DNA from: Candidatus Latescibacterota bacterium
Lineage (GTDB): Bacteria > Latescibacterota > UBA2968
Length of the DNA: 64,000 bases
Assembly: GCA_965205975.1 (NCBI GenBank)
Contig: OZ242195.1
Location: 5,120,001 to 5,184,000 of the forward strand
Direction: 5' to 3'
Part shown: positions 24,897 through 34,977 of the stretch, piece by piece
Layout of the letters: the number at the start of each line of letters is the position of its first letter
How positions within the stretch are numbered: the stretch's first letter is position 1
The notes under the pieces: generated by a model
Told to the model about the DNA's origin: nothing
Database searches by the model: none
The model's input: the letters and a program-made list of their open reading frames with translations, nothing else
Translations under genes and position numbers: made by a program

Positions 24897-25595
24897 CTAC
24901 TTAATCTCGAGCAATTCCAATTCGAATATAAGCGTTGAATTGGGACTAATTTGCCCGGCTTGCCGCGCGCCATAAGCCAGATAGGAGGGGATATAGAGTT
25001 CCCATTTTGATCCTGAGGGCATGAGTTGCAGGGCTTCTGTCCAGCCGGGAATGAGTTGATCTACGCGAAATTGCGCCGGTTCCCCGCGGCTATAAGAACT
25101 GTCAAATTCCGTGCCGTCGAGCAATGTCCCGCGATAGTGGCATACTACTGAGTCAGTTTTTTGGGGTTTCGCCCCGTCGCCGGCTTTGATCACTTTGTAT
25201 TGCAAGCCGCTGTCCAATGTCACTACGCCTTCTTTTTTCATGTTTTCCGCGAGGAAAGCCTCGCCAGCTTTTTTGTTTTCTGCTGCCATTTTGTTTTTCT
25301 CCGCTTGTTGTTGTGCCATTTGTTCCTGTCTTATCTCGAGTATAAATTTTACTGCCTCGTCCCAGGAAAGCAGGGGGGATTCTCCAGAATAACCGTCTTT
25401 GAATCCCTGTACAAATACATCCAGATCAATAGCCATGCCCTGCTGCTGTTTTAATTGATGGGATAAATCTAAGCCTATTGCATAACTCAGCTTATGTTCC
25501 TTGTCCTCGAGGTTGACTTCTACAAATTCGGGTTTTTCCTGTGCCTGGCAACCCAATAAGCCAGCAGCAATGAATACTGCAAAAAGACGCTTCAT
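24897..25595 (-). CDS. FKBP-type peptidyl-prolyl isomerase (FkpA/Mip-like lipoprotein)
   Basis: Lipobox LLGC; SYAIG; SGLQYKV; HYRGTLLDGTEFDSS; IPGWTEAL; LAYG. Confidence 0.95.
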   Translation of the reverse strand: MKRLFAVFIAAGLLGCQAQEKPEFVEVNLEDKEHKLSYAIGLDLSHQLKQQQGMAIDLDVFVQGFKDGYSGESPLLSWDEAVKFILEIRQEQMAQQQAEKNKMAAENKKAGEAFLAENMKKEGVVTLDSGLQYKVIKAGDGAKPQKTDSVVCHYRGTLLDGTEFDSSYSRGEPAQFRVDQLIPGWTEALQLMPSGSKWELYIPSYLAYGARQAGQISPNSTLIFELELLEIK

Positions 25596-25616: not shown

Positions 25617-25696
25617 TGCGAATCTACGAATCTGCGAATCTACGAATCTGCGAATCTACGAATCTGCGAATCTACGAATCTGCGAATCTACGAATC
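25617..25696. repeat. Tandem repeat (TGCGAATCTACGAATC)x5
   Basis: Five perfect 16-bp units built from alternating 8-mers. Confidence 0.95.
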
Positions 25697-25760
25697 AATG
25701 TAGGGGCGGTGCCCCTGTGCCCTCCCGTTGGGTGGTGGGGCGGGGTTCGTCTATTCGTCT
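25694..25760 (+). repeat. 67-bp direct repeat, copy 1 (contains a GTAG-type REP hairpin)
   Basis: 65/67 identical to 29548-29614 by manual alignment. Confidence 0.9.
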
Positions 25761-27279
25761 ATTCGCCAAATCGCGTTTTTACTTCCGATAGCACAATATC
25801 TGGAATATCCTCTGTGCGCTCAACTGCATAAACACAAATGTGATCCGCAACAGCAGCCCGCTGACGGAATCGTTGGGCATCCCGGTTTTGCGCTACGTGA
25901 ACAGCGGTTACCCGGTTTTCTTTTTGGATCAGAAATTGCATCAGTGCATCGAGGTTGGTGATCTGCATATCTGTTATGAGAAAAATATCCACATGATTTT
26001 TGAGAAGGGGGTCCAGATCGGGCAGATGTAACGCGGTTCCACCACCGAAGTAGCGGCACAGTGTGAAGAATACGCGCTTGCGATCTCTTGAGAAATCCAG
26101 TACTTCTTTTCCTCCTGCCTGTGCATCGCTAAAATTGTAAACGGCCACGCGCTTGCCCCGTCGCAAATACGCGTCGGCCGCGCATCCGGCACCTAAGACA
26201 GCGTGGGATGTTTCTCGACACGGATCGACCATACTGCCCGATGAATCGACAATGACCACACAATCGGGTATGCCATCGCCATCGCCGTGGGTTTCGCCAT
26301 CTCGCCAGTTCCACATCTGGGAAATGCCCGGCATGACGCGCCCAAAACTCGTCCACACATCGATATGTTGAACGGGTTTGCCAATTTCCCAGGGCGAGTG
26401 AGAATGCGGATGTAATCCGCCCACTTTTTCCAGGGGTATGGTTTGCACGGGCAAGCGAAATGCGGATGCGCGCGCCATGTAGAACAAGAGGTCGGCATCT
26501 GAGGGCGTGCCTTTGCCCCGGCCCATATCGGGCATCATGTTGGCGTCTTGTAGTTCGTCGGCAAAATCGCGCACCATTTCTCGAAAGGCATAAAATCCCT
26601 GCTCGGCAAATTGCGCCATTCCCTCCGCGAGTTCGCCTGCGGAATACTGCTGGGTATCGCCCATCATGCCACCCTGTCCATTTCCATCGTCCATTTCTTT
26701 TTGGATTAACGGGGCAATTACCTGTGCAAATGACCGAAGGCTATCGCCCCACTGCGAGGTGTCCAGATAGGGTATGCGGGCGAGCCGATCTACTTCGTCG
26801 CGATCTTCCACGCCCAAATTTTCCCCCCAAAGGCGCTGATACAATGCCCGAATTACGTCTGTCACTTCACTCGATTCAGTGTGGCGATACACTTCGGACA
26901 ATTTTGATTCGCGCTCGCGCACGGCATGGGTATCGACCACTACGTCCGAGAAATATTCGACTACCTGCTTGACCAATGCCCCATCCAATAACACGGGTTT
27001 GAGCGTGGCATATAGCTTTAAATGCGTCTCAAAATCCCAGGGACAAACAGTGTGATGCCCCACGCCGTGGTCCAGCAGTGCAGAGGTGGCGTCTTCTATG
27101 TCCATTACTTGCGCGAGGGCGGTCAGCCGATTGGCATTCAATTGGATCACTTTGTCCGTCATTTGAATGCTCGCGGCTTCGTCGCCTGTTTCGATTACTT
27201 CTGGCGTCGGCAATTCGGGAAATAGATGGCGCTTGCGAACAGCGGGCCAAATGCGCTGGATGATGTCGTTGAAGTTCAT
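25759..27279 (-). CDS. vWA domain protein with an N-terminal zincin-like domain (HGVGH in place of HExxH)
   Basis: MIDAS DSSGS...GGT...ITD; LLDHGVGHH motif; stop codon lies inside the flanking repeat. Confidence 0.8.
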   Translation of the reverse strand: MNFNDIIQRIWPAVRKRHLFPELPTPEVIETGDEAASIQMTDKVIQLNANRLTALAQVMDIEDATSALLDHGVGHHTVCPWDFETHLKLYATLKPVLLDGALVKQVVEYFSDVVVDTHAVRERESKLSEVYRHTESSEVTDVIRALYQRLWGENLGVEDRDEVDRLARIPYLDTSQWGDSLRSFAQVIAPLIQKEMDDGNGQGGMMGDTQQYSAGELAEGMAQFAEQGFYAFREMVRDFADELQDANMMPDMGRGKGTPSDADLLFYMARASAFRLPVQTIPLEKVGGLHPHSHSPWEIGKPVQHIDVWTSFGRVMPGISQMWNWRDGETHGDGDGIPDCVVIVDSSGSMVDPCRETSHAVLGAGCAADAYLRRGKRVAVYNFSDAQAGGKEVLDFSRDRKRVFFTLCRYFGGGTALHLPDLDPLLKNHVDIFLITDMQITNLDALMQFLIQKENRVTAVHVAQNRDAQRFRQRAAVADHICVYAVERTEDIPDIVLSEVKTRFGE

Positions 27280-27281
27280 GG

Positions 27282-27365
27282 ATTAGTGATTAGTGGTTAA
27301 GGGTTAGTCCGCCCAGCCCCCAATCCCTCTATTATTTTATCTGCGTCCATCTGCGTCCATCTGCG
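27282..27365. repeat. Composite low-complexity repeat: TTAGTG-like heptamers, CCAGCCCCCA motif and (TYYATCTGCG)x3
   Basis: Direct reading; resembles the reverse complement of 54102-54183. Confidence 0.7.
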
Positions 27366-28138
27366 GATGCTTTTTCCCCTCTGAGCATTTGGTCGCGGTG
27401 GTAAATCGCGCCGCCTTCAACATTGCCCACACCTCCCAGGCGTCCATTGATGTGGATTTCGCCGGCTTGCATTTGTTCGCCAATAGATCTGCCGGCGTCT
27501 CCCGATACTTCAATCCGCCCGTCGATCATACCTGCACCCAGATAGTGTCGGACATTCCCCTCGACCTTTAGGCAACCCCCCATGAGCGAAATGCCCGTGA
27601 GGTCGCCCAGGTCGCCCACAATGGTGAGTGTAATGTCTTTGCGAAGGCGATATCCCATAAGAGACAGGCGCAAATCGTGACCTGTGAGATCGAGATGAAT
27701 ATCCGATTGAGACGATGCGTTGCAAAAGGCCGATAAGAACAAGCCGAGGGGTTCCATGACAAAAAAAGCCGCGTCATTACTTTGAAGGGCGTGCGCGCAA
27801 AATGCTTCGAGATCAGTCATTTCCCAATCGATTTTTCCCACTATCTGCGATGCCGCAGCATAGGTCGATTCAATGGTTTTGCGGTCGGCTTGCCAGAGCC
27901 CCTCGCCGACGCATTCGGCGATCAGGGTGCGGTAAGCTGCCGTCAACCGATCCATTGCCTCGGTGTGAGATGCGAGAATTTCATCCATGGGCAGGGCGCG
28001 CTTTTTGCGTGTGTTTTCGACAAATTCGGCGAAGGGATTGCGCTTTGGGGATAGCAAGCCATTGACGCGCACTGCGTTTTCAGGGTTCAAATCGGATGAT
28101 GCAATCCGATCAAATTCTCGAAATGGATTTTTTCGCAT
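27332..28138 (-). CDS. GXGXG (FwdC / glutamate synthase C-terminal-like) beta-helix protein
   Basis: GDLGDLTG..LMGG.LKVEGNV..YLG.GM.DG.IEVSGDAG..IG.QM.AGEIHING repeats. Confidence 0.75.
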   Translation of the reverse strand: MRKNPFREFDRIASSDLNPENAVRVNGLLSPKRNPFAEFVENTRKKRALPMDEILASHTEAMDRLTAAYRTLIAECVGEGLWQADRKTIESTYAAASQIVGKIDWEMTDLEAFCAHALQSNDAAFFVMEPLGLFLSAFCNASSQSDIHLDLTGHDLRLSLMGYRLRKDITLTIVGDLGDLTGISLMGGCLKVEGNVRHYLGAGMIDGRIEVSGDAGRSIGEQMQAGEIHINGRLGGVGNVEGGAIYHRDQMLRGEKASADGRRWTQIK

Positions 28139-28153
28139 GTCTGGCTCCTGGAA

Positions 28154-29476
28154 TTACGAAAATTCGGGGCGCACAGGCTCTTGTCCCAGGTCGCGCATAA
28201 TTTCCATGTAAATGGGGTGTTCGCCCTGAATGGGTTTCTCGTCGGCACCATTCAAGATGTGGTTGGCAGTCATTAGAGCTGTTTGGATGCGTTCGCTTTG
28301 CTCGGTATAGCGCCGAAAGACTTGCCGCACCGCTTCTCGCGCTCTGTGAATAGGCAATACATCGTCCCGGTGGTCTTGCGTTTCTTCCTCATCTCGCCAT
28401 TGAATGCGATGAGCACATGTGTATGGCAATATCGTGCGGATATGTTCGATATCCACTTCTTTGTCGCGCAGCACCCAGGCGAGTGCCTGTGCGTAGCGCC
28501 GGATGGAGATGGGCAGGCGATTGGACGGACAGGTTTGTACTTCGTAACACAGGTAGCCCGTGTAATGACAGCCTTCGCCACAGACTTCATTTGTGCGTTT
28601 TTGTCCGTATTTGCAGCAGAAAGACAATTCGGCCAAAAAGGTTCGAACATAGGCACTGGCATCGGTCTGGAAAGGCAATGCGCTCATTTCACTGCGAATG
28701 GTTTCGCGCTCTGCACGCCCCAGGGTAGGTACGGACAAACGTTCGGAGATCGCTTGTCCATAATCCTCGCAAATCGCTTCCACCTCTGCTTCGGCATTGG
28801 GGGTGACCAGACACGCCTGGAGTGCCTGCTCGCGTTGGGGATCTCTCAGGAGATGTGCGGGAGAGGATTCAGTGCCGATCATCCAGGACAAATTCGCGCC
28901 CGGATATTTGGATTCTACCATTACATCAAAGCGATCCAGGAGAGGTACAACGATGGTATTTGTTCCGCGATCCTGATAGTTGGCCGTTGCGAACAAACAG
29001 TATTCTTCGTTGATTTGCATCTGGTTCAAGTAGGACCAGTTGCCGCGATCCACGCCGTTGAGGATCAAGCTCTGCTTTGTTTCCGGCAGGCGGTTGATTT
29101 CATCTACGACTTTGACGGGCAAGACGGAAAATGCCGACCAGACCACATCTTCTTCGCCGCGATTGAGTGCGCCGAGGTTTGGGCGCCCGACAATTTTTTC
29201 TTCGGTCTGCTCGGGGTGTCCACTTACTTCGGCTTCCCACACAGCCCCCAATGGCATGCGATATAGTAGCGCTCCGATATATTCTGCCGACGTTGTTTTG
29301 CCCAGGCCGGGTTCGCCTACGATCAGAATTTTGCCACCCAATAATCCCGTTAGCGCGCTGAGCAACAAAGCGGCATTGTGTTTTTGTCCTTCGATCTCCA
29401 GGTCTGCCCGATTAAAATACAACCGATTCTGGATAAAGGTCAAGATATCGTGTACTGTTGTTTGTAAATCGGCCAT
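28154..29476 (-). CDS. MoxR-family AAA+ ATPase with a Cys-rich insertion
   Basis: Walker A GEPGLGKT, Walker B VVDEINR, FATAN, LLDRF; CCKY...C.EGCHY.GYLC insert. Confidence 0.88.
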   Translation of the reverse strand: MADLQTTVHDILTFIQNRLYFNRADLEIEGQKHNAALLLSALTGLLGGKILIVGEPGLGKTTSAEYIGALLYRMPLGAVWEAEVSGHPEQTEEKIVGRPNLGALNRGEEDVVWSAFSVLPVKVVDEINRLPETKQSLILNGVDRGNWSYLNQMQINEEYCLFATANYQDRGTNTIVVPLLDRFDVMVESKYPGANLSWMIGTESSPAHLLRDPQREQALQACLVTPNAEAEVEAICEDYGQAISERLSVPTLGRAERETIRSEMSALPFQTDASAYVRTFLAELSFCCKYGQKRTNEVCGEGCHYTGYLCYEVQTCPSNRLPISIRRYAQALAWVLRDKEVDIEHIRTILPYTCAHRIQWRDEEETQDHRDDVLPIHRAREAVRQVFRRYTEQSERIQTALMTANHILNGADEKPIQGEHPIYMEIMRDLGQEPVRPEFS

Positions 29477-29547
29477 GTTTGTTACTCGCATACGGTAACG
29501 AATCAGCGAATCAGCGGAACGGGGTACAACTGGTGTCAGGCCAGTTC

Positions 29548-29614
29548 ATCAATGTAGGGGCGGTGCCCCTGTGCCCGCCCGTTGGGTGGTTGGGCGGGGT
29601 TCGTCTATTCGTCT
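29548..29614 (+). repeat. 67-bp direct repeat, copy 2 (GTAG-GGGCGG...CCGCCC hairpin)
   Basis: 65/67 identical to 25694-25760. Confidence 0.9.
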
Positions 29615-29694
29615 GTTCGTCTATTCGTCTATTCGTCTATTCGTCTATTCGTCTGTTCGTCTATTCGTCTGTTCGTCTATTCGTCTATTCGTCC
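29600..29694. repeat. Tandem octamer array (TTCGTCTR)x11 plus a partial unit
   Basis: Direct reading; supplies the last codons and TAG stop of the potC-like gene. Confidence 0.95.
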
Positions 29695-30501
29695 AGCGGA
29701 GCGGCGGCGCAGCCATTCGACGGTGAGCAGTAGCAACACGGCGAAGGCGATCAAGAATGTTGCGACGGCGAGAATGGTCGGGCTGATTTGCTCGCGAATG
29801 CCTGCCCACATCTGGCGCGGGATTGTGCGCTGTTCAATGCCGCCCATAAAAAGGACGACAACTACTTCGTCGAAAGATGTTGCAAACGCGAAAAGCGCGC
29901 CAGAAATAACGCCCGGTGCGATTAGCGGTAGTTGTACCCTGCGGAATGTGAGGATCGGTGAGGCACCAAGGCTTGCGGCAGCGCGCGTCAGGTTTGTATC
30001 AAAGGCGGATAGCGTAGCGGTTACGGTGATTACGACAAATGGCGTGCCCAGTGCGGCGTGGGATAGGATCAATCCGATGTGGGTTTGTGCGAGGCCCAGG
30101 GCTGAATAAAAAAAGAACATGCCCGCCGCGGAGATGATCACCGGTGTGACCATCGGCGAGATCAATAGTGCCATTGCGATGCGACGACCGGGCATGGCGG
30201 GGCTGGATAGACCCAGCGCGGCGAGTGTGCCCAGCGCGGTTGCCAGTGCGGTGGAAGCGATGCCGATGATCAGGCTGTTGATCAGTCCGCGCGTCCACAG
30301 TTCGTTTTCGACAATTTGCCGATACCAGCGCAGGGAATACGCTTCGGCGTCCAGGCGCAGCATGCCTTCGGTGAAGGTGAAGTAGGGTTCGGCATTGAAG
30401 CTCAAGGGTACGATCACCAGAATTGGCGCGATCAGGAACGCGAAGATCAGGGTACAGGAGGCCAGGTACGCGCCCCGGCCAATGCGTTGTGTTGAGATCA
30501 T
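29677..30501 (-). CDS. potC: Polyamine ABC transporter permease (PotC-like)
   Basis: TM pattern; LTRAAASLGA EAA loop; FATSFDEVVV. Confidence 0.85.
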   Translation of the reverse strand: MISTQRIGRGAYLASCTLIFAFLIAPILVIVPLSFNAEPYFTFTEGMLRLDAEAYSLRWYRQIVENELWTRGLINSLIIGIASTALATALGTLAALGLSSPAMPGRRIAMALLISPMVTPVIISAAGMFFFYSALGLAQTHIGLILSHAALGTPFVVITVTATLSAFDTNLTRAAASLGASPILTFRRVQLPLIAPGVISGALFAFATSFDEVVVVLFMGGIEQRTIPRQMWAGIREQISPTILAVATFLIAFAVLLLLTVEWLRRRSAGRIDE

Positions 30502-31799: not shown

Positions 31800-31910
31800 C
31801 TGCCTGAATTGTGTTGGTCATTTCTCCCGAAATCACTCGAAAGAGCCGGACTTAGGGGGTAACTTGAGGGGTAACTTAGGGGGTAACTTGGGGGGTAACT
31901 TCCCCAGTAG
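31800..31910 (-). pseudogene. Remnant of a Fic/HTH-type C-terminal domain with (VTPQ)n repeats
   Basis: TTGEVTPQVTP*VTPQVTP*VRLFRVISGEMT; 12-bp tandem GGGGTAACTT units; in-frame stops. Confidence 0.5.
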
Positions 31911-32731: not shown

Positions 32732-33838
32732 TCACTGCGCCAGCCAGGCACTGAAGCGCTCGTTCATTTCGTCGATGTGATCGCTCCACCATTCCCAGGA
32801 ATTTCGCAGGGCGCGCTTAGAATTTTCCGGGCTGTTGGGCATGTGGGGGTTCATTTCCACGCCTTTCTCGGCGTGTGTCGATATTAGTGCCTCCGCAGAG
32901 TGGCGCGTGGGGCTGTAGGCGATGTAACGGCCGACGCCAGCTATGGCTTTCGCTGTTGCGGCGAAATTGAGAAATTTCTTTGCGGCTTCGAGGTTCCGCG
33001 TTCCCGCGACAATGACAAGCCCGCCAGTGTCCAGTATTTGCCCGTCCCATACGATGACAAAGGGCTGATCTTCCAATACCTGTGCATTGAAGATGCGTCC
33101 GTTGTAGGCCGTGGACATCACGACCTCGCCATCGGCGAGCATCTGCGGTGGCTGTGCCCCGGCTTCCCACCATACGATGTGGTCTTTGATGGTGTCCAGC
33201 TTGCGAAAGGCGCGATCTACGCCTTCGGGCGTATTGAGGGTGGGATATACTTTGTTGAGCGGTACGCCGTCGGCGATCAGCGCGAATTCCAGGTTTGCCA
33301 GAGGTGTGCGGCGCATGCCTCGGCGTCCGGGAAATTTTTCGAGGTCAAAGAAGTCGGCCATTGTGGTGGGTTTTTCACCCTGGATATTCTCTTCGTTGTA
33401 CGCATATACGGTGGAGTAAAATATCGTTGCCGGACCGCAATCCGTCATCGTTCCGAGCGGAAAATCCTGTGCCGCAGGCGTTCCATCGGCTCCCGCTGGC
33501 AGCGAGTTGACAGGGATGAGTTCAAGCAGGCCCTCGTCACAGCCTCGCACCATGTCGGGGATTTCCATATCGACGACGTCCCAATGCACATTGCCCGACT
33601 CGACCTGTGCGCGAATCTGCGCCAGCCCGCCGTTGTAGTCTTCGAGGTTGATTTTAATACCTGTTTCAGCGGTGAACACCTCGTGGTAGCCTTTGACGCA
33701 GGCGCGTGCATAAGATCCGCCCCAGGAGACCACGGTCAGTGGTCTATCGTTGGCTACTGCACGATCTGAGGTCCATATCGCCAGTGCGGTCAGTACAGTT
33801 AGATAAAATGCCGTTTTACGCTTGTTTTGCCACTTCAA
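32732..33838 (-). CDS. Polyamine ABC transporter substrate-binding protein, paralog 2
   Basis: TTG start at 33838 with AAGGAGG RBS; VSWGGSY, WDVVD, AYNGR. Confidence 0.9.
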   Translation of the reverse strand: MKWQNKRKTAFYLTVLTALAIWTSDRAVANDRPLTVVSWGGSYARACVKGYHEVFTAETGIKINLEDYNGGLAQIRAQVESGNVHWDVVDMEIPDMVRGCDEGLLELIPVNSLPAGADGTPAAQDFPLGTMTDCGPATIFYSTVYAYNEENIQGEKPTTMADFFDLEKFPGRRGMRRTPLANLEFALIADGVPLNKVYPTLNTPEGVDRAFRKLDTIKDHIVWWEAGAQPPQMLADGEVVMSTAYNGRIFNAQVLEDQPFVIVWDGQILDTGGLVIVAGTRNLEAAKKFLNFAATAKAIAGVGRYIAYSPTRHSAEALISTHAEKGVEMNPHMPNSPENSKRALRNSWEWWSDHIDEMNERFSAWLAQ

Positions 33839-33876
33839 GTTATTTCCTCCTTGTACAGATATGAATAGAATATCCC

Positions 33877-34977
33877 TTACTGCGCCAGCCAGGTGCTGAA
33901 GCGCTCGTTCATTTCGTCGATGTGAACGCTCCACCATTCCCAGGCATTTCGCAGGGCGCGCTTAGAATTTTGCGGGCTGTTGGGCATGTGGGGATTCATA
34001 TCCACACCCTTCTCGGCGTGTGTCGATATTAGTGCCTCCGCAGAGTGGCGCGTGGGGCTGTAGGCGATGCGACTACCGACACCGGCCATGGCCTTCGCTG
34101 TTGAGGCAAAATTGAGAAATTTCTTTGCGGCTTCGAGATTCTGGGTTCCCGCGACAATAGCAAGTCCAGATAGATCCAGTATTTGTCCGTCCCACACGAT
34201 GACGAATGGCTGATTTTCCAGCACTTGAGCATTGAAGATGCGCCCGTTGTAAGCCGTGGTCATGACCACCTCGCCATCGGCGAGCATCTGCGGTGGCTGT
34301 GCTCCGGCTTCCCACCATACGATGTGGTCTTTGATGGTGCCCAGCTTGCGGAAGGCGCGATCCACGCCTTCGGGCGTGTCGAGGGTGGCATATACCTTGT
34401 TGAGCGGTACGCCGTCGGCGATTAGCGCGAATTCCAGGTTCTCCTGGGGTGAGCGGCGCATGCCTCTGCGTCCAGGGAATTTTTCGAGGTCAAAGAAATC
34501 GGCTATTGTGGTGGGTTTTTCGCCCGGGATATTCTCCTTGTTGTACGCGTATATGGTGGAGTAAAACAGTGTTGCTACGCCACAGTCTGTCGATGTTCCG
34601 AACATAAAATCCTCTTCCGCAGGCGTTCCATCGGCTCCCGCTGGCAGCGAGTCGATCTCAACGTGTTCGAGCAGTCCTTCATCGCAGCCTTGCGCCCATG
34701 TCGGGAATCTCAAATCGACGACATCCCAATGCACATTGCCCGCTTGAACCTGTGCGCGAATCTGTGCCAGTCCGCCGTTGTATTCTTCGAGGTTGATTTT
34801 AATGCCTGTTTCAGCGGTGAATGCCTCGTGGTAGCCTTTGACACATGCGCGCGCATAAGATCCTCCCCAGGAGACCACAGTCAGCGGTCGGTCTTCCGCA
34901 AAATCGCAGCCCAGAGTCAACATCGCCAGCGCGGCTATTATCGCGGTGCATAATGTCTTTCTCTGTTTGGTATTCAT
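33877..34977 (-). CDS. Polyamine ABC transporter substrate-binding protein, paralog 1
   Basis: Signal/lipobox LTLGC; VSWGGSY, WDVVD, AYNGR; near-duplicate of 32732-33838. Confidence 0.9.
   Translation of the reverse strand: MNTKQRKTLCTAIIAALAMLTLGCDFAEDRPLTVVSWGGSYARACVKGYHEAFTAETGIKINLEEYNGGLAQIRAQVQAGNVHWDVVDLRFPTWAQGCDEGLLEHVEIDSLPAGADGTPAEEDFMFGTSTDCGVATLFYSTIYAYNKENIPGEKPTTIADFFDLEKFPGRRGMRRSPQENLEFALIADGVPLNKVYATLDTPEGVDRAFRKLGTIKDHIVWWEAGAQPPQMLADGEVVMTTAYNGRIFNAQVLENQPFVIVWDGQILDLSGLAIVAGTQNLEAAKKFLNFASTAKAMAGVGSRIAYSPTRHSAEALISTHAEKGVDMNPHMPNSPQNSKRALRNAWEWWSVHIDEMNERFSTWLAQ

Follow-up and report, generated by a model that had tools for sequence, protein, structure and literature searches.

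A MoxR-clade ATPase, a GXGXG beta-helix protein and a zincin-like/vWA protein apparently form an undescribed three-component system

The window analyzed here, a stretch of 64,000 nucleotides (nt) from a Candidatus Latescibacterota bacterium (assembly GCA_965205975.1, contig OZ242195.1, positions 5,120,001 to 5,184,000), carries three co-oriented minus-strand open reading frames (ORFs). They encode, in this order, a MoxR-clade AAA+ ATPase, a short GXGXG beta-helix protein (GX), and a protein with a zincin-like N-terminal motif and, at its C-terminus, a domain of the von Willebrand factor A (vWA) type, with spacers of 15 and 52 nt. A reading made previously from the sequence alone had pointed out these genes, their PotC and FKBP neighbors and their combination, which it did not recognize as a characterized system; ORF layout and domain searches bore out the arrangement. 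We found that the trio is co-inherited in many uncultured bacteria and some archaea and that it is apparently an undescribed three-component MoxR/vWA system. The literature available as searchable full text yielded no account of the trio and no paper in which MoxR and GXGXG occur together, and for two of the three genes no Pfam or NCBIfam model scored above its cut-off.

Co-occurrence of the middle gene with this ATPase/vWA clade held across genome and metagenome loci. Among 79 genome loci, 70 have the order ATPase-GX-vWA, six are cut off by a contig end, and three show the ATPase gene alone, in genomes (G028, G007, and G052) that carry the GX and vWA genes side by side elsewhere. The 20 chosen regions comprise 16 with the same order, three with the order ATPase-vWA-GX, and one split locus, again with the vWA and GX genes adjacent elsewhere in the genome (G190). 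The 80 metagenome loci divide into 33 and 19 with the two orders, four with an ATPase-GX fusion plus a vWA gene, 21 that are truncated and three with the ATPase gene alone. The complete trio is present in 56 of the 80 metagenome loci and 19 of the 20 chosen regions, with ATPases down to 33% identical. Among 151 genomes from the phylum, 31 carry the ATPase gene, always as one copy (in one genome as two contig pieces); a second phylum has it in 41 of 301. The gene is present throughout the genus (19/19) and in most of the family (26/29), in a sister family (1/19) and in one distant family (3/3), counts in which related genomes are not independent. The closest relatives (94–98% identical) are labeled Ca. 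Latescibacterota, and the hosts extend from Latescibacterota associated with sponges to lineages of sulfate reducers.

No fourth gene is shared. When the ATPases were grouped at 72% identity into 25 lineages, no neighboring protein family occurred in more than four of them, and a client is therefore probably not encoded alongside the trio, unless the client is GX itself. All three genes are under purifying selection. Ratios of nonsynonymous to synonymous polymorphism (pN/pS), crude estimates against 10 close loci, were 0.08 for the ATPase, 0.17 for GX, and 0.09 for the vWA gene, and 0.06–0.22 for three neighbors. GX is thus not hypervariable here; the suggestion that it is a variable third component failed for the window's lineage, where it is present in one copy and its ratio is like those of the adjoining housekeeping genes. 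Distance matrices of the genes correlated at 0.79–0.88, which reflects shared ancestry and is not counted as evidence of co-evolution. At one locus (L022:9330-10377) an additional stretch of approximately 1 kb separates the ATPase and GX genes, and in five others (L125, L132, L133, L134, and L137) a Lon-like protease, mostly with an ArsA-like ATPase, comes after the trio in the same orientation (candidate labels from sequence).

The ATPase belongs to the MoxR clade of AAA+ proteins: it has the Walker motifs, an AAA_5/AAA_3-type core with a lid, its closest folds among MoxR, RavA, and chelatase proteins, and a co-encoded partner whose vWA domain has an intact MIDAS (an adhesion site that depends on a metal ion). 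A fold search with the predicted model of a fused relative, approximately 53% identical to the window's ATPase, gave PDB entry 2r44 (Z 27.7, root-mean-square deviation (rmsd) 3.2, 316 aligned residues), RavA (Z 23.9), and BchI (Z 21.1); NorQ (Z 11.4) and CbbQ (Z 11.3) matched in the core region only. No NCBIfam model came near its cut-off for the ATPase. PDB sequence searches with the ATPase and the vWA protein gave no usable match, and rows for gp41 were dismissed as chance coiled-coil matches. Between core and lid lies a Cys/His cluster, predicted to be a metal site and compatible with Zn and Fe-S alike. Four of its Cys residues and the His are invariant in a nine-row alignment over the window's clade and a second, more distant clade. 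The five-Cys pattern was found in 144 of 178 distinct ATPase segments, the others being 28 that the pattern did not parse, three parsing artifacts, and three main-clade ATPases that lack C310 and still have C316. The Cys-rich insert noticed in the earlier reading is a conserved feature, as are the Walker A and B motifs. At one locus (G280:C54:2455-3779) the ATPase is in two pieces. At another (L124, G190:C1:2196000-2205029) a lone second-clade ATPase adjoins genes that we take to be aprA/qmo- or dsr-like sulfate-reduction genes.

The AlphaFold model of the vWA protein has a C-terminal vWA fold. In the fold search the vWA domain of NorD was the top row (Z 12.9, rmsd 3.4, 185 aligned residues, spanning residues 225–505 of the vWA protein), within 1 Z of unrelated vWA domains. 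The window's protein has no Pfam match when searched alone, the VWA_2 match being that of its aligned members; all MIDAS residues (D345, S347, S349, T415, and D437) are present in it, and the combination of a MIDAS with an N-terminal HGVGH, named in the sequence-only reading, was confirmed. In the window's clade this motif reads H-[GAS]-x-x-H, followed by C-P-W, so that Gly, Ala, or Ser replaces the catalytic Glu of HExxH. Most rows of the second clade (ATPase 33% identical; members labeled Ca. Desulfofervidus, Thermodesulfovibrio, Nitrospirota, and Archaeoglobales) have HELNH at this position.

We searched 1.84 billion representatives with a vWA profile and obtained 768 clusters (50% identity) at E ≤0.001. 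The best 150 of these clusters contained 146 new proteins, 123 of them with at least 400 amino acids (aa). Among these 123 distant full-length relatives, 93 have HExxH, 10 have HxxxH without the Glu, and 20 gave no pattern match; the profile alignment sets HExxH onto HGxxH. Taxon names were attached to two of ten clusters looked up, Woesearchaeota and Nanoarchaeia (DPANN archaea). A quick 40-row tree placed the Glu-less window clade (SH-aLRT 99) beside HExxH rows, with more losses within an Archaeoglobales-like branch that lacks the first His too. These patterns suggest an active ancestor and repeated loss of the Glu. The N-terminal domain of relatives gave weak Pfam matches to M48, SprT, and BSP (E 0.01–0.03). 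Two genomes, G351 (L121, L145) and G160 (L123, L146), carry trios of both clades, one with HExxH and one without; provided that the bins are clean, armed and disarmed versions would naturally coexist in a single cell. The vWA gene is present as two ORFs with the motif HQLNH at L166:2432-3942, and at L023:10627-12515 it is broken near residue 113 by two tandem, near-identical ORFs, presumably transposase-like.

GX combines an N-terminal tag, a helical part, and a short beta-helix. Its match to PF01493, the glutamate synthase C-terminal domain, is weak (E 5e-4; 20.1 bits against a cut-off of 32.5) and its match to TIGR03122 (38.9 bits) lies far under the cut-off of 130.65, yet FwdC/FmdC chains in the PDB match it over about 55–70 residues (best E 6.6e-11), which upholds its earlier description as a stand-alone FwdC/GltB-C-like beta-helix protein. 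The GX part of the fusion model, a low-confidence part, resembles FhcC (Z 9.0, rmsd 3.4, 134 aligned residues) and, weakly, CAP beta-helices (Z about 9). We rejected an FwdC/FmdC or glutamate-synthase role for GX because its scores fall below the family cut-offs and it has no linkage to fwd, fmd, or glt genes: fwd and glt genes were not among the neighbor families shared across the 25 lineages, and the sole PF01493 match in the genome search was a 1529-aa frame elsewhere. Compared with FwdC, FmdC, and FhcC, with which it shares GXGXG repeats, GX has a shorter helix, and the helical N-terminal part and the tag are its own. Of 103 distinct free GX proteins from the main clade, 100 have the tag, NP[FY]xxF, at the N-terminus, and 20 of the 103, which come from the window's lineage, have it twice; the count omits 39 GX pieces cut at the N-terminus and 10 without the anchor motif, five of which are fusions. 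Clusters resembling GX in the ESM Atlas are mostly archaeal (Altarchaeota, Microcaldota, and Nanobdellota), with a recognition score below the tool's threshold that makes them a lead only. On an archaeal-looking contig (L171:8780-10267), the vWA gene is followed by a tandem pair of divergent GX genes.

Five metagenome loci (L189/L190, L194, L198, and L214) carry the ATPase and GX in one frame of 660–673 aa, with GX joined to the ATPase C-terminus and the vWA gene separate. The fusions comprise four distinct sequences (71–93% identical), and two database clusters hold nine full-length fusion members, one labeled Deltaproteobacteria. All fall within one of the 25 lineages, so they probably reflect a single event. 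In the fusions the N-P pair of the tag is replaced. Because natural fusions exist and do so without the tag of free copies, GX likely docks on the motor, and its fusion with the ATPase argues for GX as a subunit. The simplest reading is that fusion made a docking tag redundant, which would rest on this one event.

We compared the trio with known systems. The named MoxR subfamilies considered were MRP, APE0892, RavA, CGN, APE2220, PA2707, and YehL; PMC3893208 gives seven subfamilies. RavA/ViaA and MoxR-proper (PDB 2r44, 3nbx) provide the closest ATPase folds, yet show 14–18% identity in structural alignments. RavA has an extra binding domain, LARA, whereas the extra module of the trio is a beta-helix, usually a separate protein, and the trio's partner protein has a zincin-like domain. 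DUF2201-type peptidase-vWA proteins pair with MoxR ATPases and likewise have an HExxH domain followed by a vWA domain; we know of no beta-helix partner for them. Three relatives matched DUF2201 weakly within their vWA part (E 5e-4 to 0.05), and DUF2201_N matched none of the scanned proteins. From active zincin metalloproteases the window's clade differs in lacking the catalytic Glu, unlike most of its distant relatives.

Four MoxR-vWA ternary conflict systems, whose third part is VMAP, iSTAND (an inactive STAND), FtsH, or a vWA-fused beta-propeller, are described in the accessible text of Kaur et al. (2020; PMC7159879). The trio resembles them in uniting MoxR, vWA, and a third conserved component, but this component is a GXGXG beta-helix protein, none of the four, and the trio is inherited as core. 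The words "FwdC" and "beta-helix" did not occur in the main text of that paper as searched; its supplements could list related neighborhoods. Hypervariable effector domains or genes were not seen in the loci examined, which did not include DPANN loci. The systems NorQ/NorD, CbbQ/CbbO, and CoxD/CoxE share with the trio a MoxR-clade ATPase and a partner of two domains, in which a conserved segment precedes the C-terminal, MIDAS-bearing vWA domain, and NorD was the top structural row as described above. Only the trio has a third conserved gene, a putatively protease-derived N-terminal domain, and the Cys/His cluster, with no client gene next door, and its ATPase model is far closer to 2r44 than to NorQ or CbbQ. 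According to the accessible text of PMC9976466, one NorD vWA domain forms a plug in the NorQ hexamer, with its finger reaching into the pore and its MIDAS binding acidic residues of the client.

Together, these comparisons led us to tentatively favor a three-subunit ATP-driven remodeler, in which GX would be a motor-docked specificity module and which would grip a client encoded elsewhere and change its shape without cutting it; we consider this quite possible, if short of probable. By analogy with NorQ/NorD, the ATPase would form a hexamer, one vWA subunit would thread its conserved 278–334 segment into the pore, and the MIDAS would bind an acidic residue of the client. We propose in addition that the disarmed protease domain may act as a second clamp and that GX would dock on the motor via its NPFxxF tag and help select the client. 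Such a NorQ/NorD-like remodeler is likely to have descended from an ATP-dependent zinc protease, an ancestor that would still be represented in other lineages, and a housekeeping role in protein maturation or quality control fits its inheritance best. Several observations weigh against this proposal. In all four split operons (G028, G007, G052, and G190), where the whole genome was searched, GX stays beside the vWA gene and not the ATPase gene. Loss of the tag is a single observation, since the fusions are probably one event, and the GX half of the fusion model is of low confidence, unlike the ATPase half. The protease fold of the N-terminal domain is drawn from motifs and from weak Pfam matches in relatives, with no fold match, as the fold-search rows covered residues 277–506 only. 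Finally, the tree of the Glu losses is a quick one and midpoint-rooted.

The behavior of the split operons would suit GX as the client. The vWA protein would then bind GX through its MIDAS and protease-like cleft, and remodeling by the motor (clipping, in HExxH relatives) would serve to activate, release, or polymerize GX. The conserved acidic residues of GX (D52, D109, E111, and D179) could serve the MIDAS, GX diverges fastest of the three proteins (mean pair identity 46% versus 61% and 52%), and the archaeal-looking contig mentioned above has two copies. We nevertheless regard this as somewhat unlikely: in one lineage an in-frame fusion joins GX to the ATPase C-terminus while the vWA gene is still separate, and profile searches of 10 genomes gave a single GX copy in each.

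The metal-binding features invite another explanation, a dedicated metal-cofactor maturase in which two sites, Cys/His in the ATPase and His-His-Cys-Asp in the vWA protein, would hold a metal or Fe-S cluster for delivery to one enzyme, a role with a precedent in NorQD and CoxDE (accessible text of PMC3893208 and PMC9976466). It would account for the invariant Cys/His cluster, for a weak LRV_FeS match (E 0.048) in one relative's Cys segment, and for the retention of H71, H75, C79, and D112 after loss of the Glu. We hold it to be improbable, given that no enzyme gene is shared as a neighbor across the 25 lineages, that the first His, too, is missing from the Archaeoglobales-like branch, and that the host range is so wide. 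A conflict or defense function, in which GX would be the sensor and the protease domain the effector, has the recorded three-part MoxR-vWA systems as a model (PMC7159879, as far as accessible) and could explain the patchy spread within both phyla and the HExxH of relatives. It appears very improbable for a gene set that is single-copy and fixed in position in all 19 genomes of the genus, evolves at pN/pS of 0.08–0.17, lacks variable effector neighbors, and in the window's clade has its putative effector motif disarmed; a scan for defense systems (PADLOC) gave a match at the P-loop level only.

Extending the remodeler proposal to the wider family, we can imagine an unrecognized class of ATP-dependent zinc proteases, in which a MoxR ring would work with a separate protease-vWA subunit and with exchangeable beta-helix substrate receptors that dock by an N-terminal tag. 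In DPANN archaea the receptors would have multiplied into arrays, and bacteria like that of the window would have kept one receptor and a disarmed protease, turning a degrading machine into a remodeler. We offer this broader scheme as speculation that is rather unlikely to hold. Clients or adaptors are known for few of the widespread MoxR-vWA pairs. With natural armed and disarmed protease domains and free and fused adaptors, this family makes target choice and MoxR-powered proteolysis testable, and thermostable versions are available for biochemistry because relatives are labeled Thermodesulfovibrio, Ca. Desulfofervidus, and Archaeoglobales.

The trio is core and not mobile. An 80-nt direct repeat (25694–25773 and 29548–29627, 93% identity) indeed flanks it, as the sequence-only reading had stated, but does not bound an insertion: it is dispersed (105 blastn matches genome-wide, 39 of at least 45 nt) and nearly absent from close relatives, with one 47-nt partial match in 15 of their loci, most of which keep the gene order. 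The order potC-ATPase-GX-vWA-FKBP was found in 12 of the 12 first loci, and vWA-FKBP-truC persists at 66–71% ATPase identity (L023–L027). In related strains, the left repeat is bridged by contigs in four of four runs and the right repeat in one of four, and the GC content of the trio resembles that of its flanks. By tblastn, the ATPase and GX had no match in the plasmid and phage collections searched, nor had the vWA protein in plasmids (phages were not searched with it), and searches of IMG/VR with three alignments gave no confirmed match. We therefore rejected a mobile island or element, on the grounds of dispersed repeats, single copy, fixed position, ordinary composition, and lack of plasmid or phage matches. 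The proposed accessory, mobile module is likewise at odds with an ATPase gene that is single-copy in 19/19 genus and 26/29 family genomes, and the repeats are strain-level decorations.

Table 1. Features of the trio and its flanking repeats (window coordinates; residues are those of the respective protein).
Feature	Position	Strand	Basis
MoxR-clade AAA+ ATPase, 440 aa	28154..29476	-	AAA_5 and AAA_lid_2 above cut-off
Walker A GEPGLGKT, residues 54-61	29294..29317	-	Invariant in 25/25 aligned
Walker B acidic pair D125-E126	29099..29104	-	Invariant
Cys/His cluster C287, C299, C303, H304, C310, C316, predicted metal site	28529..28618	-	Conserved
GX beta-helix protein, 268 aa	27332..28138	-	
NPFxxF tag, first copy, residues 4-9	28112..28129	-	Sequence
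NPFxxF tag, second, conserved copy, residues 34-39, putative docking peptide	28022..28039	-	N34, P35, F39 invariant in 32/32; replaced in fusions
GXGXG beta-helix region, residues 167-242	27413..27640	-	PF01493 below cut-off; FwdC chains; FhcC structural match
Zincin-like/vWA protein, 506 aa	25759..27279	-	VWA_2 in 31/32 aligned members; model with predicted local distance difference test (pLDDT) score 79.8; vWA fold
HGVGH, Glu-less counterpart of HExxH, residues 71-75, then C79-P-W and D112	27055..27069	-	H71, H75, C79, D112 invariant
Conserved, low-confidence segment before vWA domain, residues 278-334, candidate pore-inserting finger	26278..26448	-	Many invariant residues; pLDDT <50; possible role from accessible text of PMC9976466
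MIDAS DxSxS, residues 345-349, completed by T415 and D437	26233..26247	-	Invariant in 32/32
8-nt tandem array and 80-nt dispersed repeat, strain-level, outside system	25617..25773	.	
Second 80-nt repeat and 8-nt tandem array, strain-level, outside system	29548..29693	.	

The ATPase start was set at the ATG at 29476, which matches the start of relatives; the longest ORF opens at 29491. The trio is flanked by genes for a PotC-like permease (29677–30501) and an FKBP protein (24897–25595). Contigs from RNA libraries (four runs from three studies of sponge metagenomes) span all three genes in related strains, although such contigs cannot show transcription, strand, or level. Short intergenic repeat families occur genome-wide, with a 9-mer core in 139 places, 8-nt tandem arrays in tens to more than 100, and a 12-nt tandem array; in the window they lie at 25617–25773, 27340–27367, 29548–29693, and 31850–31909, and the families vary among strains. 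Further along the window (32732–34977), a pot-like operon contains two tandem, closely similar periplasmic binding-protein genes, which some RNA-library contigs join.

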